The notes beneath the pieces are model-generated. The model did not search any database and was not told the origin of the DNA. It worked only from the letters and a program-made list of their open reading frames with translations. A DNA stretch of 45,257 bases from NCBI GenBank assembly GCA_963792545.1, contig CAWBXM010000006.1, positions 1-45,257 on the forward strand, in the 5' to 3' direction. Of the stretch, positions 2,667 to 21,541 are shown in pieces (position 1 is the first letter of the stretch; every line of letters starts with the position of its first letter). The translations under genes and the position numbers were made by a program. Origin of the DNA: an uncultured Gammaproteobacteria bacterium. Its GTDB lineage: Bacteria; Pseudomonadota; Gammaproteobacteria; SZUA-229.

Positions 2667-2796
2667 GCCATATCTCCTGTTGCTTAACTAAGGACGTTGT
2701 CCCTGGTATATGTCAATAATTATGAGTTATTAAAATTTCTAATTCTATATTGCTAATTCTATATAAATTAAGTACTACCAAATTTCCTGAGTAAAT

Positions 2797-4329
2797 TTAA
2801 GCCGCGGCTTCAGTGTCATCAGCTTCTTCGCCTTGGCCTTCAAGGATGATCGCGTTGCTTACCAACTGGTGAACACTCACGATCTGATCCATAGTCATGC
2901 CGTAATAAGGTAAAACCTTTGTGAACTGAGATTTACAGATGGCGCATATAGCTGCCATGTGTGTGACGCCATGATCGGCAACAACATTCTTCAACGATTC
3001 CATACGTGGCTGTGCGCCTTTAATACGTAGTTCCATCAGGTCATCAGTTAACAGACCGCCACCGCCGCCACAACAAAATGTCTGATCATGGATAGTGTCA
3101 GCTGACATGTCATGGAAGTTGTTACATACCGCCTGAATTACCTGGCGAGGCGTAGTGAACTGACTACCCTCTGTGTCACCGATACGTGATGCACGTGCGA
3201 TGTTGCATGAATCATGGAAGGTCAGAGTCATGTGATCGTTTTCAGTCTTATCAATATTTAATATATTGCGATCTAAACAGTCTTTAGTAAATTCAAGAAT
3301 GTGCTGTGGGATAGGGTAGTTCTGATCAAGGAAATCCCATGGCCCAGCCAGTGTATTTAAATGGTTGTATGCAACCCGCCATGCGTGGCCGCACTCGCCA
3401 AATACCAGGCGTTTAACGCCGAGCTCTTTTGCTGCGTCACGGATACGCAGTGAGATCTCACGCATGTGTTCGTAACTACCAATGAATAGACCGAAGTTGG
3501 CTGCTTCTGATGCTTTTGAACTCATTGTCCAGGTAACACCCGCCGCGTGGAATACTTTTGCATAACCGATTAAGCCATCGATGTGTGGTTCAGCGAAGAA
3601 ATCAGCAGAAGGTGTGACCAGTAATATTTCCGCGCCTTTCTCATCAAGAGGGAAACGTACTTTAATGCCGATATCGTCTTCGACTTCTTCTTCCAGGCCT
3701 TCTAGTGTATCTACCAGGGCAGGCTCCGGCAGACCAAGGTTGTTTCCAATCTTATGTACTTTAGGGATGATCTGGTTAGAGTACTTTTGACCCATGCCAA
3801 TCTGCGCCAGCATATCACGCGCGGCCATGGTTACTTCAGCGGTATCGATACCGAAAGGACAGAACACTGCGCAGCGACGACACTCAGAACACTGGTGATA
3901 GTAGCTGTACATGTCTTTGATTGCATCTTCTGTTAAGTCGATAGCGCCAACCAGCTTAGGAAAATATTTGCCGGCAAAGGTGAAATAACGGCGATAAACT
4001 TTGCGCAGTAAATCCTGACGCGCCACTGGCATGTTTTTCGGATCGGCTGTACCGATATAGTAATGGCATTTGTCAGTACATGCACCGCATTTAACGCAGG
4101 TGTCCATGAATACCTGTAAAGACCGGTATTTACTGAGTTTGTCTTCCATTAGCTCTAGAAACTTTTCTTTCCAGCCATCAATAAGACCTTTCTCGTCTGC
4201 AGAAGGGTAACCCATGGCAGTCTGGAATTCTTCACCGGCAACAAAAGGAGAGCTATGAGCCATCGCACCTTCCATAATGGAAGGTATGATGGGAAATTCG
4301 TGCGTTTCTGGTATTTCGTAATCAGCCAT
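2797..4329 (-). CDS. dsrK: DsrK, HdrD-like Fe-S subunit of DsrMKJOP
   Basis: Two CxxCxxCxxxC motifs, ECGH, and a C-terminal CCG domain (CCGGGGG ... CAIC). Confidence 0.96.
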   Translation of the reverse strand: MADYEIPETHEFPIIPSIMEGAMAHSSPFVAGEEFQTAMGYPSADEKGLIDGWKEKFLELMEDKLSKYRSLQVFMDTCVKCGACTDKCHYYIGTADPKNMPVARQDLLRKVYRRYFTFAGKYFPKLVGAIDLTEDAIKDMYSYYHQCSECRRCAVFCPFGIDTAEVTMAARDMLAQIGMGQKYSNQIIPKVHKIGNNLGLPEPALVDTLEGLEEEVEDDIGIKVRFPLDEKGAEILLVTPSADFFAEPHIDGLIGYAKVFHAAGVTWTMSSKASEAANFGLFIGSYEHMREISLRIRDAAKELGVKRLVFGECGHAWRVAYNHLNTLAGPWDFLDQNYPIPQHILEFTKDCLDRNILNIDKTENDHMTLTFHDSCNIARASRIGDTEGSQFTTPRQVIQAVCNNFHDMSADTIHDQTFCCGGGGGLLTDDLMELRIKGAQPRMESLKNVVADHGVTHMAAICAICKSQFTKVLPYYGMTMDQIVSVHQLVSNAIILEGQGEEADDTEAAA

Positions 4330-4363
4330 TATTATTCTCAGTTAGCAGTTTTCCAGTGATAGA

Positions 4364-5125
4364 TTAAGCGTTACGGCCATCTTTGGCTTCGATTTCAGCG
4401 CCCCATGGCGACAGATGACGCTTTTCACGCGGGTTATCAACCTGATAGCGTGTTGGAGCCATAAACAAACCGGGCGCATGCATTAACTTACTGATTGGGA
4501 AAATTATCGCCAAAAATAGAACCATGGTCAGGTGTGCTAATAAAATTAGGTCAGCAGGCAGATCCTGCCAGTCGAACAGGAATAAACCCATGATAAATGC
4601 TTTTAACTGTACGATGTCTGTGTGTGAAACATAGACGATGGATAATCCGGTGCCTGCGATGCCCATGATTAAAATCAGCATTAAATAATCAGAAGGAGAT
4701 GAGATATAACGTACGCGATCTACAAAGATGCGACGTCCAAAGAGGCCGAGCAAGCCAAAAAGCATTGCAAAACCTGCATAGTGACCAAAACTTTGCACCA
4801 CCATGTTGTTGACTAGCGGCCATAAAAAAGAATTCGGTGAAATCACGTAACGTAAGTGGCGGAAAAATGCGAGTAGCAAAGAAGCGTGGAATATGAAGCC
4901 AAATATCCAGGTCCACTTTGTTGCACGGAACAGGCTGTTGAACAGAACAACCTCGGTGAAAAAACGATAAACAACACCTGACCTGGTTAAAGGTGCAGGG
5001 GTAACGGCTATTTTTAATGGTGCTGGAACACGTTTGTACTGCAACATCTTGTTGGTGATGCCAGCCACTAATGTGATCATTGCCACATAAAAAAGTATGA
5101 CATACAAAATACTAAGTGCGCTCAT
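4364..5125 (-). CDS. dsrM: DsrM, NarI-like membrane cytochrome b
   Basis: Multiple TM helices with His ligands (FHASLL, RHLRY, AHLT, SKLMH); lies between dsrC and dsrK. Confidence 0.95.
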   Translation of the reverse strand: MSALSILYVILFYVAMITLVAGITNKMLQYKRVPAPLKIAVTPAPLTRSGVVYRFFTEVVLFNSLFRATKWTWIFGFIFHASLLLAFFRHLRYVISPNSFLWPLVNNMVVQSFGHYAGFAMLFGLLGLFGRRIFVDRVRYISSPSDYLMLILIMGIAGTGLSIVYVSHTDIVQLKAFIMGLFLFDWQDLPADLILLAHLTMVLFLAIIFPISKLMHAPGLFMAPTRYQVDNPREKRHLSPWGAEIEAKDGRNA

Positions 5126-5253
5126 TAAAATATCTCGTTAGGTGAATCTTAATAAAAATCTATTATTTTCGTCTGGTTATCACAGAACTTCATTTCGCGA
5201 TAACCCAACTTTAAATAAAGCACATCAAGTAACAACTAAATGAACCTTATTTA

Positions 5254-5287
5254 AAGTTACGGGGACGATGTAACTGCCCCCGAACTT
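5254..5287 (-). promoter_or_regulatory. Intercistronic RNA stem-loop downstream of dsrC
   Basis: Minus strand AAGUU-CGGGGGC-AGUUACAUC-GUCCCCG-U-AACUU. The G.U pair forms only on the mRNA strand; no long U tract follows. Confidence 0.6.
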
Positions 5288-5316
5288 AATAATTTTTAAC
5301 TTTTAAAGATTAAAAA

Positions 5317-5652
5317 TTATACACAGCCAGTTGGCTTTGGAAGACCAGCATATTTACATGCTTGCTTACCTGGGCCATATGGGAACAACTCATAAAGGTA
5401 TTTGCTGTTACCTTTTTCTTTACCAAGACGCTTACCAACTGCTTTAGTTAGTACACGTACTGCTGGAGCAATTTGATACTCTTCGTAGTACTCGCGCAAG
5501 AAGTTGATGATGTCCCAGTGCTCTTGAGTCAAAGGCTGGTCTTCAGCTGCAGCCATAGCTTCGCCTATTGCAGGTTCCCATTCGTTTAAGTTAGCTAGAT
5601 AGCCTTCTTCATCCACTTCAAATGATTTTCCGTTTACTTCAATTGCTGACAT
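5317..5652 (-). CDS. dsrC: DsrC sulfur carrier
   Basis: C-terminal arm KQACKYAGLPKPTGCV retains both conserved cysteines. Confidence 0.97.
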   Translation of the reverse strand: MSAIEVNGKSFEVDEEGYLANLNEWEPAIGEAMAAAEDQPLTQEHWDIINFLREYYEEYQIAPAVRVLTKAVGKRLGKEKGNSKYLYELFPYGPGKQACKYAGLPKPTGCV

Positions 5653-5692
5653 ATTTGTTTCCTCGTAGTGAGCTTAATAATAAAATGTGTTT

Positions 5693-5995
5693 TTAAAGCC
5701 AAGATTGAACAGAGTCGTGCTCAGCTACTAAACTAACAAAGCCTTCATAATCGACGACTTTGATACCATCAGCCAGTTTACCTTCGAGTCCACGAGCCTG
5801 AAGGTCTGGACCGAGTACGGCAAATGAAACACCGCTGGCGTTTTTGATCTTTTCTGCAGCACTGGTACCAGTGGTTGCAGCATATACTCCGTCTTCGATC
5901 AGCAGAACGGTAGAACCGCTTTTTGCGTAACCTAAACAAGCGTCGAATGTGTTAGATTCGAATGGAGATTTGTTTACTGTGTGTAATAGTCCCAT
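5693..5995 (-). CDS. dsrH: DsrH (TusB family) sulfurtransferase subunit
   Basis: LHTVNKSPF, LLIEDGVY and DLQARG motifs; operon position. Confidence 0.96.
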   Translation of the reverse strand: MGLLHTVNKSPFESNTFDACLGYAKSGSTVLLIEDGVYAATTGTSAAEKIKNASGVSFAVLGPDLQARGLEGKLADGIKVVDYEGFVSLVAEHDSVQSWL

Positions 5996-6020
5996 GATTG
6001 TCTCTTAATTTTATATTGGC

Positions 6021-6425
6021 CTAGAAGCTCAGGATTATTTCTTGTTCAGACATAACATCAGCTAACTCTGCACGGCTCACCAAACGGATAGAGTCTTTTT
6101 CTGCGTAGTCTTCATCTTCATCTTCCCAAACGAGATGCTGAAGATCATCTAATGTTAAACCACGCTCTTCGAGTGACTCTTTTTCGACGTAGATTTTAGT
6201 TACTTCGTAATCACCAAGAGCGGAGTAAACTGGTGAGAAATTCTTCTGACCAATAGCTGTAGTGTTTTGCCCCTTAGTTAGTTCGTATACACCGTCACCG
6301 ATGAATGCAAGACTAACGTCCTGGTCAAATGCTGCACCAATTAAAACAACCTCTAAAGACTCCAGAGCATAAATCGTGCCGTAAGGAGCTTTGCGGTTAA
6401 CGTACATGAATTTTTTAACTGCCAT
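6021..6425 (-). CDS. dsrF: DsrF (TusC family) sulfurtransferase subunit
   Basis: RKAPYGTIYALESLE and FIGDGVY motifs. Confidence 0.96.
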   Translation of the reverse strand: MAVKKFMYVNRKAPYGTIYALESLEVVLIGAAFDQDVSLAFIGDGVYELTKGQNTTAIGQKNFSPVYSALGDYEVTKIYVEKESLEERGLTLDDLQHLVWEDEDEDYAEKDSIRLVSRAELADVMSEQEIILSF

Positions 6426-6436
6426 ATCTAATTCTC

Positions 6437-6829
6437 CTATGCACCGAAAACGACTAAACGGTCAGCTTCGATGCCGGCTTCGATCAATTGACCCAGGCCA
6501 GAAATACGGAAACCTTCCATCAGGTTATTATCCTCAAAACCCTGGCGTTTCGCTTCATCAACATCCATGATGCCGCGACGCTGAGCTGCTGCAATACAAA
6601 CAACCATATCCAGGTTGTTTGCTAGAGACAGTTCTGACCATTGTTTTGCAATATTGCGATCATCTTGTGGCGGAACCGCAAGTTTGGTCGCATTATTAAC
6701 ACCGTCGTGATAGAAGAAAACACGAAATATTTCATGCCCGGCAGCAAGTGCAGCTTTAGTAAACTGATACGCCGTATCAGATGCCTGGTGCTGGTATGGA
6801 CCTTCGTTAACTTGAATACTAATCTTCAC
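6437..6829 (-). CDS. dsrE: DsrE (TusD family) sulfurtransferase subunit
   Basis: FFYHDGV motif and active-site CIAAAQRRG; GTG start. Confidence 0.96.
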   Translation of the reverse strand: MKISIQVNEGPYQHQASDTAYQFTKAALAAGHEIFRVFFYHDGVNNATKLAVPPQDDRNIAKQWSELSLANNLDMVVCIAAAQRRGIMDVDEAKRQGFEDNNLMEGFRISGLGQLIEAGIEADRLVVFGA

Positions 6830-6866
6830 AGTAATACCTTTATTCGATAATCGTTAATAATATTAA

Positions 6867-7943
6867 TTAGAAGCGAATGTGAGTCGAAGCATTTAAGCTG
6901 TTACGAGCACCGCGCCAGTTATCAATGTGATACTTGGTGAAAGGCAGGTTAGTCACTTCGAAGAAACGAGGCCAGCCAATACGCTCAATCCAGTCATTGA
7001 TACGTTCCCAATCTTTAGCATCGTTTTTGTATGCTTTAAGAATGTTTTTCACGATAGCAGTAGCTTCAGGCCAGCGTGGTGGATTGTTTGGGATACCAGC
7101 AGCAACTAATTTCTGGAAAGTCGGTTTGCTACGAGCGTTAGAGTGATTACCGCCAACCCATACTGCTAATTTAGAATGCTCAGCATCATTAATTTGCATT
7201 GGAGGGCAAGGAGGGAAACATGCGCCGCAACAGATACATTTCTTCTCATCAACTTCTAAAGAAGGTTTGCCGTTAACCATCGCAGGACGAATCGCAGCTA
7301 CCGGGCAACGTGCAACAACAGAAGGTCGCTCACAGATGTTAGATACTAAATCGTGATTGATCTTAGGTGGTTTAGTGTGTTGAACGTTAATAGCGATGTC
7401 GCCTTGACCACCACAGTTAATCTGACAACATGATGTAGTGATATGAACACGGTTAGGCATGTTGCAGTTACGGAACTCGTCGATCAACTCGTCCATCATA
7501 GACTTAACAACACCTGATGCATCAGTACCAGGGATATCACAGTGTAACCAGCCCTGTGTGTGAGAAAGCATTGTTACAGAGTTCTTGGTACCGCCAACGA
7601 TGTAACCTTTGTCGGTAATCGCTTTGATTAAAGGCTCAACTTTCGCTGGGTCAGCAACCATGTATTCAACGTTACTACGGATAGTGAAGTGTATATAACC
7701 ATCAGCGAATTCATCGCCAATATCACATAGTTCACGTAGAGAGAAGATATCAAGAATACGTTGTGTACCAACACGTACGGTCCAGATTTCGTCGCCGCTA
7801 TAACCTACGTGACGAAGCACACCCGGTTTTGGATGCTCATGGAATTTCCATGCGCCGTAATTTTTACGCATAACTGGGTGCATGTATTGGAAGCCATCTG
7901 GGCATCCAGATTCTATCGGTGAACGAGGTTTTTCATCACTCAT
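6867..7943 (-). CDS. dsrB: Reverse dissimilatory sulfite reductase beta subunit
   Basis: HTQGWLHC, CCQINCG, a ferredoxin domain, and ERINDWIERIGW. Confidence 0.98.
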   Translation of the reverse strand: MSDEKPRSPIESGCPDGFQYMHPVMRKNYGAWKFHEHPKPGVLRHVGYSGDEIWTVRVGTQRILDIFSLRELCDIGDEFADGYIHFTIRSNVEYMVADPAKVEPLIKAITDKGYIVGGTKNSVTMLSHTQGWLHCDIPGTDASGVVKSMMDELIDEFRNCNMPNRVHITTSCCQINCGGQGDIAINVQHTKPPKINHDLVSNICERPSVVARCPVAAIRPAMVNGKPSLEVDEKKCICCGACFPPCPPMQINDAEHSKLAVWVGGNHSNARSKPTFQKLVAAGIPNNPPRWPEATAIVKNILKAYKNDAKDWERINDWIERIGWPRFFEVTNLPFTKYHIDNWRGARNSLNASTHIRF

Positions 7944-7972
7944 TTTTTATTCCTCAAAAATTTAATATTTGT

Positions 7973-8000
7973 TAGACGGGGCATAAAATAGCCCCGCCCA
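7973..8000 (-). promoter_or_regulatory. Intercistronic RNA stem-loop between dsrA and dsrB
   Basis: Minus strand UGGGCGGGGC-UAUUUUAU-GCCCCGUCUA: a 10-bp stem including two G.U pairs, with no adjacent U tract. Confidence 0.6.
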
Positions 8001-8019
8001 GGATTAGATTACGAATCGA

Positions 8020-9285
8020 TTATGCGTTAGCAGCTTCTGCTTTACGCTCAAACCATTTTTCAGCTTCTTCGTCCCAGCCATCCATACGGACGTAAGAACT
8101 CTGACGAGGATTGCCGACCATGTTTGGATCTACTTCAAGACCGATACCTTCCAGGTAGTTAACCAGACCGATACGCTCGATCATCTCACCCGTACGTTCG
8201 TGTTCAAGACCATTTTCAGCCCAGAAATCGATCATTTCTTCAGCCAGTTCTACCAGGCTTTCGTAATCTTCTTCAGTTTCCATTTTCTTGAATGGGATAA
8301 CAACGGTACCCATCAGGTCACCGATCTTCAGTGTGCGTTTACCACCGACTAGTACAGTAACACCGTGGTCATCACCTGGGTGAAGCGCTTTAGGCATAAC
8401 GTTCAGGCAATGCATGCAACGTACACAGTTACGGTTATCTACTACTAATGTATTGTCTTCAGTGATAGACAGTGCATTAGTCGGGCAACGTGAAGTCATG
8501 TTGTCGATGTAGTATTGACGACCGTTTTCACCTTTCGCGTCGATGTAGTTCTTAACTTCTTCCTGATCAACTTTCATGTCATCGCGCCATGTACCGATAA
8601 TGGCCATATCAGCACGTTCGATAGCATTCTGACAATCGTTAGGACAACCAGAAACTTTGAACTTGAATTTGTATGGAAGTGCTGGACGGTGAACATCATC
8701 AGTAAAGTTGTTTACCAGTGTGCGGTGAATCGCGTGCTCGTTCGCACAAGACATCTCACAACGTGAAGCGCCGACACAAGACATAGCAGTACGTACACAT
8801 GGACCCGCACCACCTAGATCCCAACCGTAGTCGTTGATCTCATCAAAGAAGTGCTGTGTACCTTCAGTGGTAGTACCGATAAACATGATATTACCAGTCT
8901 GTCCGTGGAAAGTTTGCAGGCCTGAACCCCATTTTTCCCAGCTATCGCCTAACTGACGTAACATAGAAGTGGTGTAGTGGTTACCTGCAGGTGGTTGAAC
9001 ACGGATAGTGTGAAATTCTTTAGACTCTGGGAAAGCTGAACCTACTTCAGAGAAGCGAGGAATAATACCGCCGCCGTAACCATAGACAGATACGGTGCCG
9101 CCTTTCCAGTAACCCTTACGAGTTTCGTATGAATGCTCAAGCTGGCCCAGCAGGCTACTTGTTACATTTTGGATACGTTCATCAGGATGATTATCACGTA
9201 AATTCTTGATACCTGAAATAAAACTCGGCCATGGGCCATTTTCAAGTTCGTCGAGCATCGGTGTTTCATAAATCTTCTTGGCCAT
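8020..9285 (-). CDS. dsrA: Reverse dissimilatory sulfite reductase alpha subunit
   Basis: TPMLDELENGPWPSF; siroheme-[4Fe-4S] motif CVGASRC...GCPNDC; YKFKFK. Confidence 0.98.
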   Translation of the reverse strand: MAKKIYETPMLDELENGPWPSFISGIKNLRDNHPDERIQNVTSSLLGQLEHSYETRKGYWKGGTVSVYGYGGGIIPRFSEVGSAFPESKEFHTIRVQPPAGNHYTTSMLRQLGDSWEKWGSGLQTFHGQTGNIMFIGTTTEGTQHFFDEINDYGWDLGGAGPCVRTAMSCVGASRCEMSCANEHAIHRTLVNNFTDDVHRPALPYKFKFKVSGCPNDCQNAIERADMAIIGTWRDDMKVDQEEVKNYIDAKGENGRQYYIDNMTSRCPTNALSITEDNTLVVDNRNCVRCMHCLNVMPKALHPGDDHGVTVLVGGKRTLKIGDLMGTVVIPFKKMETEEDYESLVELAEEMIDFWAENGLEHERTGEMIERIGLVNYLEGIGLEVDPNMVGNPRQSSYVRMDGWDEEAEKWFERKAEAANA

Positions 9286-9515
9286 GGAATATCTCCTGTC
9301 TGCCGCTATGGTTGTGTCAGTTTAAGTACAGATTGATTGTGTACCAGGGGTGCAGATTTTAGTACCAATCTATTTGTTAAACAATATCTCTTTCAATGTA
9401 ATTCGCTGCTTTGCTACGTTACATCTCTGAGGCAATCTATATTTGTGGTGCGAAGTTTAGGTTGAGATAGCAAACTGTAGAATCCTACGCATGGGGGGGG
9501 TGTTAAATTATGCTT

Positions 9516-9531
9516 TATCCCCTATGGGATA
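9516..9531. promoter_or_regulatory. Palindromic operator-like site in the dsrA/tauD divergent region
   Basis: TATCCC-CTAT-GGGATA, a perfect 6-4-6 inverted repeat. Candidate dsrA -10 TAAACT lies on the minus strand at 9459-9454. Confidence 0.45.
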
Positions 9532-9730
9532 GTGGATATTGGTCTCAGTCTAATCGAATCATGCTATTGCTATTTAAAACAAAGACTTACTCTGTATATG
9601 ATGACAATCATTCGTAGCGGTTTAATTTAACTTATATATTATGTATCTGCCAACCAGTAGTGATATTGTGATTTTTTTATTTTTTCGGCAAGCTGTAAGC
9701 TGTTTAACTTACATGCTTGAGAAAATTTTT

Positions 9731-10639
9731 ATGCCACTATCTGCGAAACAGCACATTCTAGCGCACTCCGCTTTCGATCTGTGTGATAACGTCGCCTATG
9801 CAGCGTGGCGTGAAATTAAGCTGTTGTATAAGAGACCGAAAGTTTCTGATTTGCTGGTTGACGTACTCGATCCGTACCAGCTAAGTAGTGCGGAAGTCTC
9901 GGCGATAAGTGTACGTTGTCGGCACTTCAATATGGCTATTTATCAGCTGTACGATCCGCAGGTCACGGATAAAAGGCTGGTGCATGAAATGGGTGCACAG
10001 TTGGCAATGAGACATCTCGATTCTAATCTGCGGGCAGATGAGGATAGCGTGACAAGTCTCGAAGTAAGGGCGCAATCCGGCAATCAGTATATTCCATACA
10101 CAAATAAAGCATTAAGTTGGCACACGGACGGTTATTATAATCCCCTTGATAAACAGATTTTTGGCATCATTATGCATTGTGTGCGACCTTCAGATGAAGG
10201 TGGTGTTAATCGGCTGCTGGATCCAGAACAGCTTTATATCGCACTTAGAGATCAGGATCCGGCTTATATAGAAGCTTTGATGCATCCCGAGGCAATGACC
10301 ATTCCGGATAACATTGAGAATGGAAAAGTGATTCGCGAAGCACAGAGCGGCCCGGTATTTAGTGTCAAGCCAGATGGACGCTTGCATATGCGCTACTCAG
10401 CAAGAAAACGCAACATAGTTTGGCGTGATACGGACGATACGCTGAAGGCTATCGAAAGTATCAGTAAAATTATGGCTGACGATAAAAATGTGCTCAAAGT
10501 GGCGCTCAGATCTGGCCAGGGCATTATCTGTAACAACGTATTGCACAATCGAAGTAGTTTTAGTGACAGTGAGAAACAAAAGCGCTTAATGTATCGCGCA
10601 AGATATTATGACGCTGTACATCAGGTGAATAGCGAATAG
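9731..10639 (+). CDS. TauD/TfdA-family Fe(II)/2-oxoglutarate dioxygenase
   Basis: HxD...H facial triad (WHTDG ... NNVLHNR). Start uncertain (9641, 9713 or 9731). Confidence 0.85.
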   Translation: MPLSAKQHILAHSAFDLCDNVAYAAWREIKLLYKRPKVSDLLVDVLDPYQLSSAEVSAISVRCRHFNMAIYQLYDPQVTDKRLVHEMGAQLAMRHLDSNLRADEDSVTSLEVRAQSGNQYIPYTNKALSWHTDGYYNPLDKQIFGIIMHCVRPSDEGGVNRLLDPEQLYIALRDQDPAYIEALMHPEAMTIPDNIENGKVIREAQSGPVFSVKPDGRLHMRYSARKRNIVWRDTDDTLKAIESISKIMADDKNVLKVALRSGQGIICNNVLHNRSSFSDSEKQKRLMYRARYYDAVHQVNSE

Positions 10640-10664
10640 TGATTAGTGATTAGTGATTAGTGAT
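10637..10664 (+). repeat. Heptamer tandem repeat (TAGTGAT)x4
   Basis: Four exact copies beginning at the stop codon of the TauD-like gene. Confidence 0.9.
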
Positions 10665-10711
10665 TTTCGCAGAAACCTAGCGCTAATATTATATTTTTAG
10701 AGGTTTGAGTA

Positions 10712-10900
10712 ATGTTGTGGTTAAGTGAAGTTATGATCCAGAATCCTGAAATGGAGAATTTTGAGCAGCTCAAAGATGAGCTAAAAAAGCGTGCGGCAGG
10801 AGGAGAGTTGTTTTTTCGTATGGACGTTAAACCTCAGTTTTCTGATACCCCTGCGGACTGGGAAGATAAGCTGGAAGCAGCATTTACCTCCAGAGTGTAA
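10712..10900 (+). CDS. Small acidic hypothetical protein of dsr-associated clusters
   Basis: GAGG RBS-like sequence upstream; protein-like composition; co-oriented between the tauD-like and cas6-like genes. Confidence 0.75.
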   Translation: MLWLSEVMIQNPEMENFEQLKDELKKRAAGGELFFRMDVKPQFSDTPADWEDKLEAAFTSRV

Positions 10901-10933
10901 TCAGAGACTCGCTAAATTTAACGGTAGACTATT

Positions 10934-11635
10934 ATGTTCTGGCAAGAAGACGACAAAAAAAATGATGTATCCACCTCCGAAAAGGTGGTGGATGCGAGTT
11001 ACAGGATTGATTGTAAGCAGATCCCAACCTGTCACGCATGGGAATTATCTCAGGCTTTGTATCAGGCTTTGCCCTGGATAAAAGATGATGATGAAATAGG
11101 TGTACATCAGATACATGGGGCTGCCTCCGGTAACGGTTGGGAGCGTCCGCCTGACGGTGAGTTAATCCATCTTTCAAAGCGTGCCCGTATGCAGATGCGT
11201 GTGCCTGTATCACGTATTGATGATGCGGCTGATCTGGTTGGTAAAACACTGGATGTTGCAGGATTCCCGGTTGTCATCGGTGAAATGACCAGTAAGTCTA
11301 TCGATCCCTTTTCTACCCTTTTTTCTCGCTACATCGTCGCGCCACCAGAGATGAGCGAAGATGATTTTCTGCAGTGGGTGTTTGAAGATCTGAGCAGTCG
11401 AGGTATTTCGGTGCGTAAGCTGCTGTGTGGGATCGGCCATAAGTTCGAGGCAAATGGTGAGCAAATCGAAACACGAAGTTTGATGATAGCGGATCTGGAC
11501 AAGTCGACGTCAATTGCATTACAGGAGGTTGGTATTGGTCCGCACCGGCATTTTGGTTGCGGTATTTTTGTTCCGCACAAAGGTATAAAAGCGGTCGGTG
11601 AAACAGAAGATAAAGCCCATTTTTCAGGAAGTTAG
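10934..11635 (+). CDS. Orphan Cas6/Cmx6-like (type I-MYXAN-like) RAMP endoribonuclease homolog
   Basis: C-terminal Gly-rich loop LQEVGIGPHRHFGCGIFVP (GhGxxxxxGhG); N-terminal IPTCHAWELSQAL with His at the position of the Cmx6 DHGY motif; GVHQIHG. Confidence 0.82.
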   Translation: MFWQEDDKKNDVSTSEKVVDASYRIDCKQIPTCHAWELSQALYQALPWIKDDDEIGVHQIHGAASGNGWERPPDGELIHLSKRARMQMRVPVSRIDDAADLVGKTLDVAGFPVVIGEMTSKSIDPFSTLFSRYIVAPPEMSEDDFLQWVFEDLSSRGISVRKLLCGIGHKFEANGEQIETRSLMIADLDKSTSIALQEVGIGPHRHFGCGIFVPHKGIKAVGETEDKAHFSGS

Positions 11636-11797
11636 GTGATTCTTTTAAAGTTATATATGACTCATTGCGAGCAAGCTGAAAAAGGCTTTTTATATTACCT
11701 TGGAAAAAATACTACCCCATTAGCAATACTGGAAATGAGCTAGCTATTCAGCTACTATTTGCGCCACATTTACAATATAGAATGAGGTTAATTAATC

Positions 11798-12121
11798 ATG
11801 GCAGCACTTGACTCAGTCGATAGAACAGCAAACGGTTATCTTGAAAACATAAACGACTGGAACGAAGAGATCGCAGCAGAAATTTTTGCTGAGGAAGAAA
11901 TCAATCCGACTGAAGAGCACTGGGACACTGTGCGCTATGTTCGCCAGGAAACTTTAGATGGCAACGAGCCAAATGAGCGTAGCATCATGAAAGCGATGGG
12001 CAAGCTCTGGGGTCGTAAAGTTTCTTCAAAAGAAATGTACGAAATGTTTCCTGGTATGCCGTCAAAGCAAGGCCTGAAAATTGGTGGTTGTCCACAGAGC
12101 ACACGTAAAGGCGGTTACTAA
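11798..12121 (+). CDS. TusE/DsrC/DsvC-family paralog lacking the canonical C-terminal cysteines
   Basis: GYLENINDWNEE, TEEHW and LYE-like MYEMFP align with DsrC. C-terminus KQGLKIGGCPQSTRKGGY versus KQACKYAGLPKPTGCV. Confidence 0.85.
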   Translation: MAALDSVDRTANGYLENINDWNEEIAAEIFAEEEINPTEEHWDTVRYVRQETLDGNEPNERSIMKAMGKLWGRKVSSKEMYEMFPGMPSKQGLKIGGCPQSTRKGGY

Positions 12122-12283
12122 TTTTTAGAATATGAATGTTTATCTTCCCATTTATAGATATATGGGTAAGATACTGCACAGACTAAAATTCTACTAAGTT
12201 AATAAAATTCAAATACGTAAGAATTTATCAGGCTATAAAGGTCTAAAAACGATAAGTTCCACATACATGAAAAGGTGAGAGAT

Positions 12284-12487
12284 ATGAGCAGCAAACAAGA
12301 AATGATTAAAGAAATGCTGGAAATGCAAAAGAAATTTTCTGCATATGAGCAAGCAAACGGTGTAGATCCAGAAGAATATTTCACACCAGAAGCTGGTTCA
12401 GAGTTTGATGGATACCGTGCGAAATATCAGGAACTTGCAAATAAAGTTGTTGATATGGCTCATGAAGAGGCCGGTTCTGAGCGTTAA
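12284..12487 (+). CDS. Small helical hypothetical protein
   Basis: RBS AAGGTGA upstream of ATG 12284; followed by a terminator. Confidence 0.75.
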   Translation: MSSKQEMIKEMLEMQKKFSAYEQANGVDPEEYFTPEAGSEFDGYRAKYQELANKVVDMAHEEAGSER

Positions 12488-12508
12488 GTCAGAAACAGTA
12501 TAAGCATG

Positions 12509-12538
12509 AAAAAAGCCGCACATTGTTGCGGCTTTTTT
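12509..12538 (+). terminator. Intrinsic terminator (potentially bidirectional)
   Basis: AAAAAA-GCCGCA-CATTGT-TGCGGC-TTTTTT. Confidence 0.88.
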
Positions 12539-13100
12539 GTATCGTATTTCATCTACCTCGTGTTCTGATAACGTATCGATGAATTAATCATGTTCCTTAG
12601 ATGTTAGGGGCTAAACTAAATAACGTTAATACAAGCACTGATAAGAAGAGAACCACTAAAGCTAATTTCTTTGTTTCAGTTCCGATCTCTGTTTCCATTT
12701 TTTTCTCAATTTTCATTGTTCCGCTCCTTTTGAATAAATCGAGTGCCCGCTTCATAAAATAATTAATAATTTTCGGGCAGTGATTTTTTAATTACAATTG
12801 ATATCAACTTTTAGCTTCCACATGCAGGAGCTAGTCCTCAATGAATAATACTATTAACAAACGCTGCTTTATTAAATCAGGGATTCCCCTATTTTTTGCG
12901 TCATTACTGCCGAATGTATTCAAGCCAATGATTCTGTTTCACCTCGAACTGATTTTTTTAGATGAAACACTGGCCAGATAAAATTCAGGTAACCCCTGAT
13001 GGTAGAACTTCGCAGACCACGTAATATCATGCCTCAGTTTATTTATAAGCTAAATCAGAAATGTGTTTTAGCCATAGCTATCAGTGAAGAGAGCCATAAA

Positions 13101-13475
13101 ATGAAACATGTGAATTCTGATTCAGTATTTGAAAAATTTACTTACAAAATCAATAATATAGACAAGGCGAAGGTGTGTGCCAGCAGGAAACATAATTCCG
13201 CTCGAGTCACCGTTACGGTCAAACTTGTAGGCGTGCTGGACCTGCGTGCAGTTTATTTAATGCATAACATCTATGAATTCGCCAAAAACTTTAAAGCGGC
13301 ACATATCATTGTTGACCTTCGCAGAACACATCACATCCATGACTCGGGTCTGGCGATGTTGTTATTGTTGAAAAATAAGCTTGGATCGCAAATTGAAAAA
13401 ATAAAACTCACTAATACAAGCCATTTAATGAACCGCCACTTTGCTTATCTGCCGATAACGTTTGAAATTAGTTGA
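13101..13475 (+). CDS. STAS-domain (anti-sigma factor antagonist-like) protein
   Basis: VKLVGVLD ... IIVDLRRTHHIHDSGLAMLL resembles the STAS DL..v..hDSSGL motif, here degenerate. ATG 13101 preferred over 12999. Confidence 0.65.
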   Translation: MKHVNSDSVFEKFTYKINNIDKAKVCASRKHNSARVTVTVKLVGVLDLRAVYLMHNIYEFAKNFKAAHIIVDLRRTHHIHDSGLAMLLLLKNKLGSQIEKIKLTNTSHLMNRHFAYLPITFEIS

Positions 13476-13498
13476 TAACTTAAATATAGGTAATAGTA

Positions 13499-13684
13499 AT
13501 GCTAGACCTGCTTACAGAACTGGAGATACTGGAGATAAAAGAACGGCGTAAAATAATTGCCCATCATGCTTATCGGCTTGCAGAACAGCGTGGTTTTAAT
13601 GGCGGTGATGCGGTACAGGATTGGCTGGAGGCAGAGAAGGAAGTTAATGTGATGTTTGACTGGTTATCTGCTAACAACGTTTGA
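13499..13684 (+). CDS. DUF2934-domain small protein
   Basis: IAHHAYRLAEQRG...DWLEAE motif. Confidence 0.85.
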   Translation: MLDLLTELEILEIKERRKIIAHHAYRLAEQRGFNGGDAVQDWLEAEKEVNVMFDWLSANNV

Positions 13685-13727: not shown

Positions 13728-13952
13728 ATGGCAAAACGACAACTTGTAGCAGCATCAAAAAAAGTAAGAACTCCAACTAAGACTCAGAGAAACACAATGA
13801 AGAGTACTCTGGATGATGTAGATCAACGTGAAATGATTGCACGTGAAGCCTACCTGCGCGCAGAGAAACGTGGTTTTAATGGCGGAGATCCGGTACAGGA
13901 CTGGCTGGAGGCAGAAGCCAAGGTTAGTGAGATGATGAAGATGAGTGCATAA
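13728..13952 (+). CDS. DUF2934-domain small protein (paralog)
   Basis: IAREAYLRAEKRG...DWLEAE motif; GGAGG RBS. Confidence 0.88.
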   Translation: MAKRQLVAASKKVRTPTKTQRNTMKSTLDDVDQREMIAREAYLRAEKRGFNGGDPVQDWLEAEAKVSEMMKMSA

Positions 13953-14182: not shown

Positions 14183-17100
14183 TTATTTTAAAGCTCCAGG
14201 CATATGTGTGCACTTGATGAGTGTTCCTTTACCCGGCGATGATTCAATGTTTAAAGTGCAGCCAATGACGCCTGCGCGGTAGCGCATGATTCGTAAACCG
14301 AGATTGTTTGCTAAATTTTTGTTTTGTGGGTCAAAGCCTTTTCCATCATCATAGACAGTGAGTTCAAAGTGATCCGTGTTATTCAACTGGATGCTGATAT
14401 TTTTGGCATCAGCATGCTTCACGGTATTGTTGAGACATTCCTGAATGATACGGTAAATCTGGATGCACGTTGTATGATCATCAATAGTAACGGGCAGTTG
14501 TGACTCAAAGTGACAGTTAATTCCTGATGCTTTTTGAATATCACTAATCAGTACATTTATTGCATCCTCAAGTCCCAGTGTTTCTATCGACATGGGTGCC
14601 AGTCCACACGATAGCGTTCGAGCGCTGATGGTTGTCTGTTGCAAGTGCTTAATGATTTCATCCAGTTTAGTATTTTGTGGAATATTTTCGCGCACAAGCT
14701 CGCGTTGCAGGCTGGCGATCATCAGGCTTAGACCTGTAAGCTGCTGGCCGAGGTCATCATGTATATCCTGACCAATGCGTTCCTGTTCCTGCGTACTGAC
14801 ATCGGCGATCTCTTTCTCCAGAAGTTTCTGTTCACTCAGGTCACGGATGATGCCGCAAAACAGGCCGATATGATCAATCTTGGTGACAGATAGTATCAAC
14901 GGAAAAATCGAGCCGTCTTTGCGAAGACCGGGCAATTCACGTGGGCCATTCATGATGTGGCTTTCACCGGTCTTCGAGTAGTTAGTCAGATAAGTATCAT
15001 GTTGCTCGTGATAGGGTGAGGGCATCAGCATGTTGACATTAGAATCGATAATTTCATCGACGCTATAACCGAACATGTTTTCCGCTGCCAGGTTGTAATC
15101 GGTAATCAGGCCGCCCTGATTTATTACAATGATGGCTTCTGCTGCGTTATCCATAATTGCACGCAGACGTTCCTCACTTACCTTCAATGTTTTTTCATAT
15201 TGCTGGCGTTCGGTGACGTCATGCATCAACCATACTTCATGGTCATCGAAACGGTAGGCGGCGAATTCAACAAATCGCTTGTCACCTTTTTTGCAGGTGA
15301 TGGTCTACCGGTGTGGTTCGTTTAGGGAAGCCGCGATACGATCTTTTTCGTATAAATGGCGGATTTTTTTTGCACGTTTACCGTACAATTTTTCGAACCA
15401 CTGATCCAGGGTTTTAAGTTCGGTGCGTTTGATACCCGGTGAGTTCTTCGGCAGCGCGATTCATGGTCAGCTTGCCATTTGCGATATAGATCGCGCCGGC
15501 AGGCAGATGTTCGACCATGCGCAGCAGGCGTTCGCTCTGCGCCCGTACTTCGTCGATGTATTTTCGTTCGCTAATATCGCGTTCAGTGATGGCAATGGCT
15601 GCTGGCTGACCTGACTCATCTTTTAGCGGCGTTACTGTCATCCATATATCAAGAAGTTGTCCGTCTTTGGTCTGTCGATGTGCATCGTACGAGTCGACAA
15701 CTTTACCTTGCGCCACCAGCTGGAGATATTCCAGCTCTTTATCTACGCTGTTTGCGGGTATCAGGGAGCGGATATTCATCTGCAATGCTTCTTTTTCTGT
15801 ATAACCGTATATCTTTTCGGCGCCGCGATTCCAGGACAAAATCTTTCCATCGAAATCCTGTACGCTAATAGCATCATTGGAATCGCGTACTACAGTCGCC
15901 AGCCTGTGTGTTTGCGCCTCGGATCTGACGCGCTCTGTAATATCGACAAAGGTGATGACTACGCCCTCTATGCGATTATCAGAGGTACGATAGGGCTGGC
16001 TTCGACGCAGGTAATCATGACCATCAGCCGTGTGAATTTCTGTTTCGATCGGCGTTAATTTTTCCAGTACGCGGTTAGCATCTTCAATGCAGGTCGGTGC
16101 CGGTGAAGTCAGTTGCGAAGGTATTGACCGCACGACCGATGTCGCTGTCGATCAGTTTGAGTAGTTTGCAAGTGGCCGGTGTGAACTGCTGGATGCGTAA
16201 TTCGGTGTCCACAAACAGCGTTGCAATGTCGCTGCTGTTGAGCAGGTTGATCATGTCATTGTGAGCCTGATCCAGTTGCTCAACTTTGTCCTGTAGCTGG
16301 TTGTTCACCGTGCTCAATTCTTCATTGAGTGATTGCAGCTCTTCTTTTGAGGTCTCCAGTTCTTCATTTGATGACTGCAGCTCTTCATTCATCGACATGA
16401 TTTCTTCGTTTGAAGCTTTTAGCTCTTCGTTGGAGCTTTCCATTTCCTCGATCGTGCTCTGCAGGTCCTCACGCGTGGACTTGAGTTCATATTCCAGATG
16501 GGTTATTAATGATGATTCATCTTCGCCTTTATGTTCGATTGTTTTAGATTCTTCAGACGAGGTGTTTTCACTTATCTGAAAGCTGACCAGCAGCAGTCCT
16601 TCGGCCTGTTTAGAATCAGTGATCGGTTTGACGGTGATTTTGCAGGGTAACAGTTCATCGTTGTGCTTGATGCGGGCGCTGGTATCGATAACCGGCTGAT
16701 TATTACGTATCGCCCGGTGGCAGGCGGTGCGGAGTTTGGTGCGTAATCCCTGGCGCGCCATGGCGATCAGATCACGGGTAGGTTCGCCCGTGGGTGCTTG
16801 CAGAAAATCACCGGTTGCACCATAGAAATACAGGATTTCATATTTGCGGTTGATCAATGCTGAGGCCGGACCATAGTCGGACAGTAGCTGGCGTTGCGTC
16901 AGTTCGGCGAAGTTCAGTTCATGACTGGCATCATCCTCTTTGATCAGTGGCTGCAGTAAACCTTGACGCTTATAGCCGGATACGATTGGAAAATTGATCA
17001 TGTCACGTCGTGTTGGGCCAATGCGCCTGAATAATCGCCATTTTTTTGATACGATTTTATACATGTCCACCTGCCGACCGATCGTTTCCGATGAACCGAG

Positions 17101-18499
17101 AAACAAAAAACCGTCTTCATGTAAGGAAAAATGGAACAGTGAAATGACTTTTTTCTGGACATCGGGTTCGAGGTAGATGAGCAGGTTGCGGCAACTGATC
17201 AGGTCGAGTTTTGAGAAGGGGGCATCGCTGATCAGGTTCTGGGCAGCAAAGACCACCGACTCGCGCAGTTGTTTTTTGACCTGGTAGTGGCTGTCGACCA
17301 GGGTGAAAAAACGCAATAGACGTTCACTCGTAATATCGGCAGAAATCGTTTCCGGATAGATGCCCTGACGGGCAAATTCCAGTGCATTTTCATCGATGTC
17401 AGTCGCATATATCTGGATGTCAGGCTGTTTCTGAGCGGCTGAAAATTGTTCGATTAGCAACATGGCGATAGAATAGGCTTCCTCACCGGTAGCGCAGCCG
17501 GGAACCCAGACGCGCACCGGAGTATCACTGTGCTGCTCGATTAATTGCGGTATCACGTGCTGCTCCAGTACCTGGTAGGCTTCTGGGTCACGGAAAAAAC
17601 GGGTTACGCTGATCAGCAGATCGTGATACAGACGATCCACTTCGTTTGCATCATTACGCAACAACTCAAGGTATTGCTCGAGCTCATCTATGTGGTTCAG
17701 TCCCATGCGTCGCAGTACGCGGCGCAACAACATGTTTTTGCGATAGCAGCGAAAATCGTATTTCATTCGAGCCCGAAGCAGGGCGAGAATACGGTTGAGT
17801 TGATCCTGCTCGGTTGTCGGGCAATTCGATCGGGTTCCAGTCGCCTCTGACATAAGCATGTTGTGCATACTTGATCAATTCAACTGGCATTTCCTCGGGC
17901 GGCAGGATGAAATCGATGCAGCCGGTATCGATAGCATTTTGCGGCATACGGTCATACTCGGCCGTATTGGGACTCTGTACCATTGCCATGCCGCCATTTG
18001 CCTTGATCGCCTGCAGGCCCAGAGTGCCATGCGAGCCGGTACCGGACAGAATGATGCCTATGGCGCGCTCTTCCTGATCTTCTGCCAGTGAGCGCAGAAA
18101 ATTATCGATGGCGGTTTCTGCACCGCGTTTCTCGGGCGGTTCGATCAGTTGCAGTACGCGCTGATGTATTTCCAGATATTTAGCGGGCGGAATAATATAG
18201 ACATGATTGGCTTTAACCGGCATGTTATCTTCCACCTCGCAAACCGGCATGGTGGTATGTTTGGTGAGCAGTTCAACCATCAGACTCCGATGGTTCGGAT
18301 CCAGATGCGGTACCAGCACAAAGGCCATATTGCTATTGTCCGGCATATGCGAGAAAAATGTTTTGAAAGCATTCAGGCCACCGGCTGAAGCACCGATGCC
18401 TACGATTGGAAACTTTGACTGTTTGCTGTCTGTGGGTTCTGTCTTGCCGCTGTCGTCGGTTTGCTGCTGTTGCGGTTTCTTATTGTTGGTTTTGGGCAT
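14183..18499 (-). pseudogene. CheB methylesterase-CheR methyltransferase-coiled coil-multi-PAS-histidine kinase (HisKA_3/HATPase) fusion, broken by frameshifts in this sequence
   Basis: Four consecutive ORFs: CheB (GASAGG, SGTGSHG), CheR (WVPGCATGEEAYS, ISCRNLLIY) with coiled coil, PAS domains, and kinase (DIHDDLGQ, DDGKG). They join by single-base indels near 17820, 16089 and 15431 plus a compensating pair near 15335/15305 (TAG at 15305-15307). Repaired length is about 1437 aa. Confidence 0.8.
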
Positions 18500-18669
18500 A
18501 AAGCCACTCGTGTTGGCAGTCAGAGAATAGTCATATTACCCCTAAATACACGGTGATTATATAGACCGGCATGTTGTGAAATTTTTTTATCGATAGTAGA
18601 AGTGCATTGATTTGTGTTCGGGTATTTTTATTGACCAGTTCAAGTCAGTCTTTATAAAGTCAGCCTGAT

Positions 18670-19326
18670 TCAGAGATTCGAGTCAAGCGACCACTGCATA
18701 GCACTGCGAGTCAGGTCACCGCCACTAACAAGTCCAAGCTTCTTTTTGATATTGGCGCGATGCGATTCGATTGTTTTGATACTCAGGTGGAGTGTGCTGG
18801 CAATATCACCTGTGCTCAGACCACGGCCGATAAGCTCAAAAACTTCCAGTTCTCGATCAGATAACTGTTTAACAGGCGACTCGTCTGGTTGTTGACTATC
18901 ATCAGAATTGTTCAGCAATAAGAGATGCTCTGCGAGCTGCGCACTGACGTATTTTTCTCCGCTGAGTATCTGATTGATCGCATTGATGAATTCATCACCG
19001 GTCGCCGACTTGTTGATGTAACCTTTTGCCCCAGCCTTCAGGGCGCGTTTTGCAAACAGGTTTTCATCATGCATAGAGGAGACCAGAATAGCCAGTTCAG
19101 GGTAGTGTGCTAGCAGACGTTTGATCAGTTCGAGACCGTTTCCGTCGGGCAACGACAGGTCGACTATGACTAAATCAGGTTTACTATGCGAGATTAACTG
19201 TAGTGTTTCAGCGATGCTGGATGCCTCATCGCTTACCTTGAGACCGGGTTCGCCGTCGATAAGCTGATGCAGACCACGGCGTACAAGCATGTGATCGTCG
19301 ACGATAAAAATACTGGCTTCAGACAT
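18670..19326 (-). CDS. NarL/LuxR-family response regulator
   Basis: REC domain (IVDDH, VDLSLPDGNG, GYINK) and LuxR HTH (LSDRELEVF...TIESHRANI). Confidence 0.95.
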   Translation of the reverse strand: MSEASIFIVDDHMLVRRGLHQLIDGEPGLKVSDEASSIAETLQLISHSKPDLVIVDLSLPDGNGLELIKRLLAHYPELAILVSSMHDENLFAKRALKAGAKGYINKSATGDEFINAINQILSGEKYVSAQLAEHLLLLNNSDDSQQPDESPVKQLSDRELEVFELIGRGLSTGDIASTLHLSIKTIESHRANIKKKLGLVSGGDLTRSAMQWSLDSNL

Positions 19327-20866: not shown

Positions 20867-21541
20867 CTAAATATCCGACCACATTCTTAATAAATTGACG
20901 TAGCTATTACTCAACAGTTCCAGCTCAGTCGATTCGGGTAATGTTTTCATCAGGGCTTCGCGTGCCTGACTAAGGTTATACAATATCTCGCGTTTTGCGG
21001 GGTCGCGCACGGTGCTCTGTAACCAGGTAACCGCGACCAGGCGTTCACCTCGAGTAACTTCTGCAACACGGTGTGTGCTCGATGAAGGGTAGAGCACTGC
21101 GTCACCTGCGTTAAGCTTGACCTTCTGTTCACCAAAAGCCGTGTTGATCACGAGTTCACCACCATCATAAGCATCCGGCTCATTCAGGAAAATAGTAATC
21201 GATATATCAGAACGATAACGCTGGTTTGCCGGACCCATAACCGGATCATCTACATGGTTACCATAAGACATGCCCTCGCTATACTTTGCATAGTAGGGCG
21301 CAGCAATTTTTGCAGCAAATGCAGTGGCAATATATCTTGGATTTCGTATCAGTTTGCCCATTACCAGGTTATTAAGACGTTGGGTTTCAACTTCTGAAAT
21401 AAACATCTCATGGTTATTTTTAACGCGTCTGGCTTCACTGCCGGCGGAGGCGGTGCCTTCATGAAAATTGGCGGTCGCCATCAGGTCCAGAATAACACTG
21501 ATGTCTTCTTTGTTTAGTACGTCAGGGATAGTGACTAGCAT
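20867..21541 (-). CDS. PKHD-type Fe(II)/2OG hydroxylase (PiuC/YbiX family)
   Basis: YGNHVD, RSDISITIFL, YDGGEL, YPSSSTHRV, RGER and YVNLLRMW. Confidence 0.92.
   Translation of the reverse strand: MLVTIPDVLNKEDISVILDLMATANFHEGTASAGSEARRVKNNHEMFISEVETQRLNNLVMGKLIRNPRYIATAFAAKIAAPYYAKYSEGMSYGNHVDDPVMGPANQRYRSDISITIFLNEPDAYDGGELVINTAFGEQKVKLNAGDAVLYPSSSTHRVAEVTRGERLVAVTWLQSTVRDPAKREILYNLSQAREALMKTLPESTELELLSNSYVNLLRMWSDI

Follow-up and report, generated by a model that had tools for sequence, protein, structure and literature searches.

The stretch of DNA analysed here (the window) is a contig of 45,257 nt from an uncultured gammaproteobacterium (CAWBXM010000006.1 in assembly GCA_963792545.1). 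It holds a cas6 gene that stands outside of any CRISPR context, in a module divergent from the dsr gene cluster. The genes at this locus are the following.

693-9285, minus strand: dsrLKMCHFEBA cluster with dsrA as first gene (Pfam NIR_SIR and Dsr families)
8020-9285, minus strand: dsrA (TIGR02064, 630.7 bits), divergent from the cas6 module
9732-10639, plus strand: dsrQ, TauD-family Fe(II)/2-oxoglutarate dioxygenase (PF02668, E=4e-17)
10712-10900, plus strand: sp62, conserved helical protein of 62 amino acids (aa), no assigned family
10934-11635, plus strand: cas6 of the dsr type (Cmx6 subfamily), 233 aa, the central finding
11798-12121, plus strand: DsrC/TusE-family paralog of the RspA type (PF04358, E=1.6e-22)
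12284-12487, plus strand: sp70, conserved protein of 67-70 aa, no Pfam match
12509-12538, plus strand: intrinsic terminator closing the module, stem GCCGCA/TGCGGC followed by a T-run

A first-pass annotation had described the gene as co-oriented with a TauD-like gene, two small proteins and a Cys-deficient DsrC paralog and as divergent from dsrA, which is borne out by the open reading frames (ORFs) and profile matches.

The 233 aa protein matches Pfam family PF09559 (E=7e-56, 189.7 bits at a cut-off of 26.7) and the NCBIfam model TIGR02807, cas6_cmx6 (117.8 bits, cut-off 98.85). Cas6 models of PADLOC match as well. The Gly-rich loop GIGPHRHFGCG occupies residues 200-210 of the translation and the N-terminal histidine is His34; the gene had been recognised as cas6 by these two traits. 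A profile built from 53 homologues and run against the PDB finds the Cas6 chain 8fcj_B of a type I-B CRISPR-associated transposon (CAST) with E=4e-24. The structure predicted by AlphaFold (pLDDT 86.2, pTM 0.81) was compared using Foldseek. The top matches are 8fcj_B and 8fcu_B (TM 0.73-0.82; 0.76/0.82 for the latter), after which come numerous Cas6 and Cas6e structures. Two RNA recognition motif (RRM, ferredoxin-like) domains and the C-terminal Gly-rich loop are present. Profile and fold agree with the earlier assignment, and the protein is unambiguously a true double-RRM Cas6 of the Cmx6 subfamily, located outside a CRISPR context.

His34, Arg89, Gln197, Gly200, Gly202, Gly208 and Gly210 are invariant in 17/17 sequences comprising dsr-linked and CRISPR-linked proteins. 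Arg132 and Arg181 align with arginines of 8fcj_B and are kept across both clades. His34 is located at the start of helix 1, is retained in at least 90% of 53 dsr-type sequences and is a candidate for the catalytic residue. Other features are exclusive to the dsr clade. These are an N-terminal extension with an invariant Trp3, Trp48 (invariant or near-invariant), invariant His58 and Lys216, near-invariant Cys27, His61 and His215, and an insertion of ~10 residues, SGNGWxRP, in which Gly68, Trp69 and Pro72 are invariant. Model confidence is low at this insertion (pLDDT 54 for the block of residues 61-70).

No CRISPR-like array is found in the 45-kb window and no cas Pfam domain among its 38 large ORFs, in line with what the first-pass annotation had stated. 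The search was extended to the source genome assembly (166 contigs, 76% complete). PF09559 has a single match there, neither Cas1 nor DevR-type Cas7 was found in the assembly at this completeness, and a spaced-repeat scan of it yielded no array, the hits being plain perfect tandem repeats with identical 'spacers'. Such CRISPR-mimicking repeats with periods of 46-90 nt lie on contigs of the source genome (G000) at C68:11281-11731, C123:12755-12939, C130:730-990, C65:5951-6204 and C36:4413-4573; some of these families follow terminator-like hairpins. Since the source genome is incomplete, five closed or near-closed carrier genomes were checked: Cas1 is absent in 4/5 and DevR-type Cas7 in 5/5. 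Carrier G036 has Cas1 genes at a distance of 64-164 kb from cas6. Going by these searches of the window, the source genome and the closed carriers, the gene does not belong to type I-MYXAN or any other CRISPR-Cas system.

The linkage to dsr is conserved. Within the same genus the gene is present in 18/24 genomes (72-82% identity), and synteny is seen in 15/15 loci fetched from relatives. A scan with one genome per species gave 534 relatives. The best 80 of these belong to Gammaproteobacteria (Thiotrichaceae, Thiohalobacter, Thiogranum, Acidiferrobacterales, Ectothiorhodospiraceae, Chromatiales, Arenicellales and similar) and were used for neighbour counts, restricted to loci with enough flanking DNA. 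sp62 is located directly upstream of cas6 in 74/75 loci, the TauD-like gene upstream in 62/70, a divergent dsrA within 4.5 kb in 50/57, the DsrC paralog downstream in 63/68 and sp70 in 52/65. The usual order is dsrA, then in divergent orientation dsrQ, sp62, cas6, the DsrC paralog with an RKGGY tail and the 67-70 aa gene. Seven loci have no divergent dsrA; other dsr genes nevertheless lie close by in at least two of them (L083, L111). Thiohalobacter thiocyanaticus (locus L110) is a cultured carrier, and a genome of merely 1.1 Mb retains the complete module beside dsr.

An extra gene of 235 aa (X238) is inserted between sp62 and cas6 in 15/80 loci. It belongs to no Pfam family and gives a weak TPR-like lead (0.83). 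The source genome has an unlinked copy with 48% identity (G000 C165:25438-26019; L151 8436-9137, minus strand).

A family-balanced sample of 401 genomes of Gammaproteobacteria was used to quantify the association (the tallies take in one genome each flagged as unpublished, G332 and G063). PF09559 occurs together with a strong dsrA in 120 genomes, PF09559 only in 5, dsrA only in 7 and neither in 269. Hence 120/125 Cas6-positive genomes have dsrA and 120/127 dsrA genomes have Cas6. Three of the five Cas6-only genomes contain a dsr-type module cut by a contig end, the fourth (G045) a canonical CRISPR locus, and the fifth is G332. One of the seven dsrA-only genomes has sp62 on a 1.6-kb contig, and for 3/4 of those fetched a contig end lies no more than ~630 nt upstream of dsrA, so that the absence of Cas6 is uncertain in these three. 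Conserved linkage to dsr had been named as a feature whose lack would speak against a sulfur-related role; these counts and the synteny speak for it.

Outside of the class the gene was not seen. In a phylum-level sample, drawn differently from the class sample, PF09559 is found in 5/401 genomes, all of the same class. dsrA is present in 62 genomes (E<=1e-60). All 5 of them belonging to the class carry Cas6, the 57 others do not (0/57), the absence outside the class being that of 57 dsrA genomes in one sample. Six loci of other classes resemble those of the oxidative Dsr pathway (rDsr, dsrE downstream) and have the TauD-like gene without Cas6. sp62 is also present in two of these six, namely those reaching far enough, and an RKGGY-tailed DsrC paralog is encoded elsewhere in 4/5 Cas6-less genomes of other classes. 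As dsrQ, sp62 and the RKGGY paralog occur in Cas6-less classes, they are older or broader in distribution and Cas6 is the class-specific addition.

In a distantly related lineage of the class (Cas6 identity of 29-32%, seen in three closed genomes) the order is dsrA, small ORF, cas6 and a paralog ending in GKGGY. The TauD-like gene lies further on, and dsrQ and sp62 are not located between dsrA and cas6. Given that this lineage keeps cas6 and the paralog side by side next to dsrA, the pair is the most persistent core of the module. The small ORF before cas6 is conserved there (loci L200-L202 of genomes G754, G725 and G787; 75-84 aa, motif ...QEIELQ...), and an ORF of 203 aa follows the paralog. 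Neither resembles sp62 or sp70.

The descent of the clade was evaluated by a quick maximum-likelihood tree of 7 CRISPR-linked, 13 known-dsr-context and 36 representative proteins, the careful search being unfinished. A single split separates the dsr-clade Cas6 from the CRISPR-linked Cmx6 (SH-aLRT 99). The CRISPR-linked relatives come from cyanobacterial plasmids and are 20-26% identical to the dsr type. Neighbourhoods fetched for two of them (H2, H6) comprise full cas6-cas3-cas8-cas7-cas5-cas4/1-cas2 operons. At the canonical locus of G045 (L153), which lacks dsrA, 21 repeats of ~37 nt lie beside a Cas6 of 26% identity, and by order and size the ORF run is read as cas3, cas8, cas7, cas5, cas4/1 and cas2 of type I-MYXAN.

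Within the genus, dN/dS has a median of 0.083, based on the 54 pairs out of 78 that gave a usable dS (dS being near saturation). Judging by this ratio the dsr-clade Cas6 is under purifying selection. Cas6 distances track those of DsrA (Mantel r=0.69) and DsrB (r=0.70; p=0.001 for both, 42 loci); DsrA versus DsrB gives 0.81, and Cas6 evolves ~3 times faster. A profile search of 1.84 billion representatives (50% identity clusters) retrieved 1543 proteins at E<=1e-3 and 294 at E<=1e-30. The NGW motif of the clade (strict pattern) is present in 118 of the best 150 profile matches. Taken together, these data in our view establish, at the level of genomes, that a Cas6 clade was exapted into the rDsr context. 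Apparently the whole clade has parted from CRISPR, and in gammaproteobacterial sulfur oxidisers it now accompanies rDsr almost universally.

The ORF of dsrQ opens at 9641 and alignments of its homologues begin at ~9732. With 63.4 bits against PF02668 (cut-off 27) it belongs to the TauD/TfdA family, and the HxD iron-binding motif appears as WH[TS]DG in 59/62 homologues. The heptamer GTGATTA is repeated 5.9 times at 10625-10665, from the last dsrQ codons into the spacer before sp62. sp62 has 13 invariant columns over 45 sequences. Its model (pLDDT 86.7) finds no fold match in the PDB (best E 3.4), and a complex prediction of Cas6 with sp62 scores 0.01, which counts neither for nor against binding. 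For sp70 the ORF opens with GTG at 12275 (70 aa) whereby the ATG at 12284 is the probable start.

The DsrC paralog ends in ...GGCPQSTRKGGY. An RKGGY tail is found in 70/71 paralog copies near Cas6, compared to PTGC[VI] in 45/46 of the neighbouring true DsrC copies. DsrC sensu stricto has an arm with CysB and the penultimate CysA (...CxxxxxxPTGCV), and CysA is absent from the paralog. As the penultimate Cys is missing while PF04358 is matched, the paralog is of the RspA type. The Cys-free tail, (R/G)KGGY, extends two residues beyond the DsrC arm (window; L022-L116, L200-L202, L206-L209). By analogy, two glycines plus one residue recall sulfur-carrier proteins that are trimmed, which is speculation.

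Our preferred reading, held tentatively, is that Cas6 has retained but retuned its recognition of RNA hairpins and acts on sulfur-oxidation messages. The protein would still recognise structured RNA via the Gly-rich loop and His34, Arg89, Arg132 and Arg181. Acting post-transcriptionally, it would bind or cut at a hairpin and so set stability or stoichiometry of the messages. The Trp3 extension, the SGNGWxRP insertion and Cys27, His58, His61, His215 and Lys216 would retune the specificity or couple Cas6 to proteins encoded next to it. In Allochromatium vinosum, post-transcriptional control of the dsr operon is reportedly attributed to DsrS.

Several observations weigh against this reading. GC-rich hairpins follow dsrA (~7973-8000) and dsrC (~5254-5287), and the first-pass annotation had put forward those at 5254-5287 and 7973-8000 as targets. 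They recur in position (dsrA-dsrB in 46/51 loci, dsrC-dsrM in 41/42, at -13 kcal/mol or below), but their sequences differ between lineages, and in 6/6 Cas6-less rDsr loci of other classes the dsrA-dsrB hairpin reaches equal strength (-22.7 to -31.1 kcal/mol). As it is present without Cas6, it is not specific to Cas6. Both hairpins are generic features of dsr operons and were rejected as Cas6 sites. The search in and around the module turned up no conserved hairpin that shows compensatory changes. An Rfam scan of 4000-13500 gave terminator-like matches below threshold only. Public metatranscriptome runs contained 5-9% of the words, with contigs from relatives at 88-95% identity. dsrA is heavily covered, whereas the 5' part of cas6, dsrQ, the paralog and sp70 are covered by short pieces. 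These contigs provide neither transcript ends nor levels and are not used as evidence.

The protein itself adds further doubt. The dsr-clade Cas6 is acidic by whole-sequence charge, the measure used throughout this comparison, with a median pI of 5.7 and a median net charge of -6 over 53 proteins. The window Cas6 with pI 5.25 and charge -11 is hence not basic by this measure. In contrast, the CRISPR-linked relatives are basic in 7/7 cases (pI 9.3-9.6, +5 to +10). The turn to an acidic protein weakens a simple RNA-binding model. Moreover, the HMM alignment places Asn in 8fcj_B at the position of His34, so that this residue is not indispensable in the family, and the conserved glycines may be structural. 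Of the original proposal, that Cas6 was exapted to bind or process sulfur transcripts, the part on a CRISPR-free, dsr-linked gene therefore stands, while an RNA target was not found and the clade proved acidic.

The strongest rival holds that the Cas6 fold now serves as an RNA-independent subunit with a protein-binding, regulatory or sulfur-handling role. We consider it possible, though somewhat more doubtful. Partners would be the RKGGY paralog, DsrAB or DsrEFH, and the Cys/His set or the former groove might bind a basic peptide arm. The change from basic to acidic charge fits, as do the residues found in the dsr clade only (Cys27, His58, His61, His215, Lys216, Trp3, Trp48 and SGNGWxRP). The paralog adjoins Cas6 down to 29-32% identity, even where dsrQ and sp62 are missing between dsrA and cas6. 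A precedent is DsrD, an allosteric activator of DsrAB according to the relevant passages of PMC8794893. However, both clades retain the Gly-rich loop together with His34, Arg89, Arg132 and Arg181, and RKGGY paralogs exist in 4/5 Cas6-less genomes of other classes, showing that the paralog does not need Cas6. Proteins of 409-2000 aa yielded no fused Cas6 form, a Cas6-DsrC fusion included, though the evidence from this is weak. The more specific version, by which Cas6 was rebuilt into an acidic, RNA-independent component of sulfur oxidation whose new residues and SGNGWxRP loop bind or act on the RKGGY arm, DsrAB or DsrEFH, is to our mind possible but doubtful. If true, it would be the first case of a Cas protein turned into a subunit or regulator of an enzyme system that conserves energy.

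A second rival concerns the spacer between dsrA and dsrQ, which measures 446 nt in the window and contains conserved blocks. They are listed here along with a block further downstream.

9356-9384, minus strand: promoter-like block for dsrA; TTGTTT, 17 nt, TAAAAT (TAGAAT in relatives)
9456-9496, plus strand: block AGTTTAGG, ~16 nt, TAGAAT, then CCTAC(G/C)C(A/T)TGGGG; conserved across distant lineages
9516-9531, no strand assigned: 16-bp palindrome TATCCC-N4-GGGATA, probable DNA operator
11712-11772, plus strand: promoter-like conserved block 5' of the DsrC paralog with a TA(C/T)CCC half-site (from the spacer listing)

The dsrA block is near-invariant in a 13-sequence genus alignment. With hexamers read by eye, it is promoter-like and matches the consensus of a putative promoter. 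The block at 9456-9496 may serve the dsrQ operon as a promoter-like element and contain, in addition, a first element resembling an operator. As the spacer between cas6 and the paralog holds a promoter-like block too, the five-gene module may consist of two transcription units instead of one operon. The earlier description of one operon with one terminator thus stands for the terminator (the 113-nt stretch 12488-12600 containing it folds at -26.8 kcal/mol, z = -3.2) and is in doubt for the single operon.

Allowing up to 2 mismatches, the palindrome is found in 55/58 dsrA-dsrQ spacers versus 1.2 expected in shuffles. It is the only copy in the source assembly and likewise in the closed genome G036, where it lies 141 nt upstream of dsrA. 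Its half-sites vary independently (19 identical pairs observed versus 21.4 expected), and mismatches are distributed symmetrically between the strands (33 plus, 28 minus, of 330 stem positions). Due to these two properties it is read as a DNA operator for a dimeric regulator, which we regard as probable from the substitution pattern; an RNA hairpin was rejected on the same grounds. The 7-2-7 layout and the TACCCAT-like neighbour (9484-9496) presumably resemble NarL-family sites. A TA(C/T)CCC half-site is also located 5' of the DsrC paralog in 23/64 spacers versus 6.0 expected. The paralog is a candidate for the palindrome-binding protein; Grimm et al. are said to have reported in 2010 that DsrC binds DNA.

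Alternatively Cas6 would itself recognise TATCCC-N4-GGGATA, as a hairpin in the 5' leader RNA or as DNA, and autoregulate the divergent dsrA/dsrQ promoters. The element is unique in the genome and located between dsrA and dsrQ, the distant Cas6 lineage has related palindromes of the form TACCC-N4-GGGTA, and the strict pattern is absent beside dsr in 5 Cas6-less genomes of other classes. Nor does it occur at 29 dsrA loci in the phylum-level sample; 28 of these are from Cas6-less genomes of other classes, the exception being L194, a Cas6 carrier of the same class. Yet this presence/absence contrast is essentially one class-level split, and independent halves with strand-symmetric mismatches fit a dimeric DNA-binding protein, not an RNA stem. 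Moreover, Cas6 proteins are to our knowledge not known to bind double-stranded DNA. We thus regard this explanation as improbable.

That the gene encodes an ordinary CRISPR Cas6 which processes an array elsewhere in trans is close to refuted and hardly credible to us: an array could be unassembled at 76% completeness and G036 does have distant Cas1 genes, but most closed carriers lack Cas1 and all lack DevR-type Cas7, the 1.1-Mb genome keeps cas6 by dsr, nearly all carriers of the class sample have dsrA, the sole canonical locus of that sample (G045) has a Cas6 of 26% identity and no dsrA, and the tree splits the clade from CRISPR-linked proteins.

Further genes are located downstream of the module. 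Two small DUF2934 proteins are encoded side by side at 13499-13684 and 13728-13952, and an ORF of 158 aa at 12999-13475, belonging to no family, recurs in some relatives. Signalling genes are clustered at 14183-19326 (minus strand) and encode a PAS/HisKA_3 kinase, a PAS protein, a CheR-PAS fusion, CheB and a LuxR-type response regulator. Few relatives retain this cluster close to the module, and the LuxR-type regulator was rejected as a conserved module neighbour (5/106 loci). Two more genes for 2OG-Fe(II) oxygenases are found on the minus strand at 20867-21541 and 25438-26058, one with a PKHD-type C-terminal domain.

Recruitment of Cas proteins for non-defence functions is rare, while the dsr Cas6 clade spans ~294 clusters (50% identity, E<=1e-30). 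Since such genes receive the label 'type I-MYXAN CRISPR-associated Cas6/Cmx6' from annotation pipelines, CRISPR counts are inflated in sulfur oxidisers. dsrQ, sp62, cas6, the RKGGY-tailed RspA and sp70 form a defined accessory module with a unique operator, from which the still unsolved regulation of the oxidative Dsr pathway could be approached.

In a literature search no published link of Cas6/Cmx6 to dsr, DsrC, TusE or TauD was found. Several components of the module are known. The TauD-like gene divergent from dsrA matches dsrQ as reported in PMC7596348, a passage of which credits the gene name to Lenk et al. 2012; dsrQ is also named in part of a bioRxiv/ISME paper on Acidobacteria. Passages of PMC9371685 and PMC8477390 define RspA as DsrC-like proteins without CysA, the former mentioning 'TauD/DsrQ' together with RspA and the latter the family comprising DsrC, TusE and RspA. 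The passages of PMC7596348, PMC9371685 and PMC8477390 dealing with DsrQ and RspA name no Cas6, 62-aa gene or RKGGY tail.

DsrD of sulfate reducers is dsr-linked like the dsr-type Cas6, but belongs to the reductive pathway and has an unrelated fold without homology. This fold is a winged helix, which is nucleic-acid-binding. As far as the passages of PMC8794893 go, the small dsr-linked marker protein acts as an allosteric activator of DsrAB. For the preferred mechanism, the model is processing in the manner of Cas6f/Csy4, whereas here no cognate hairpin was found and the protein is acidic. Cas6f/Csy4 cuts at a hairpin, stays bound and sets the stability of the flanking message; it is used to insulate operon genes.

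The closest known system are the Cmx6-type Cas6 proteins (I-MYXAN/I-D/I-B; Synechocystis Cas6-1, CAST 8fcj and 8fcu), which belong to the same Pfam and NCBIfam family. Synechocystis Cas6-1, close to the CRISPR-linked set, is described as a proven hairpin endoribonuclease in the relevant part of PMC5741207. The dsr-type Cas6 shares with them the double-RRM fold (TM up to 0.82), His34, Arg89, Arg132, Arg181 and the GxGxxxxxGCG loop. Unlike the CRISPR-linked Cmx6, to which it is 20-26% identical, it is acidic, dsr-linked and free of array and cas operon, and it possesses an N-terminal segment, the SGNGWxRP insertion and a His-Lys pair after the loop in addition.

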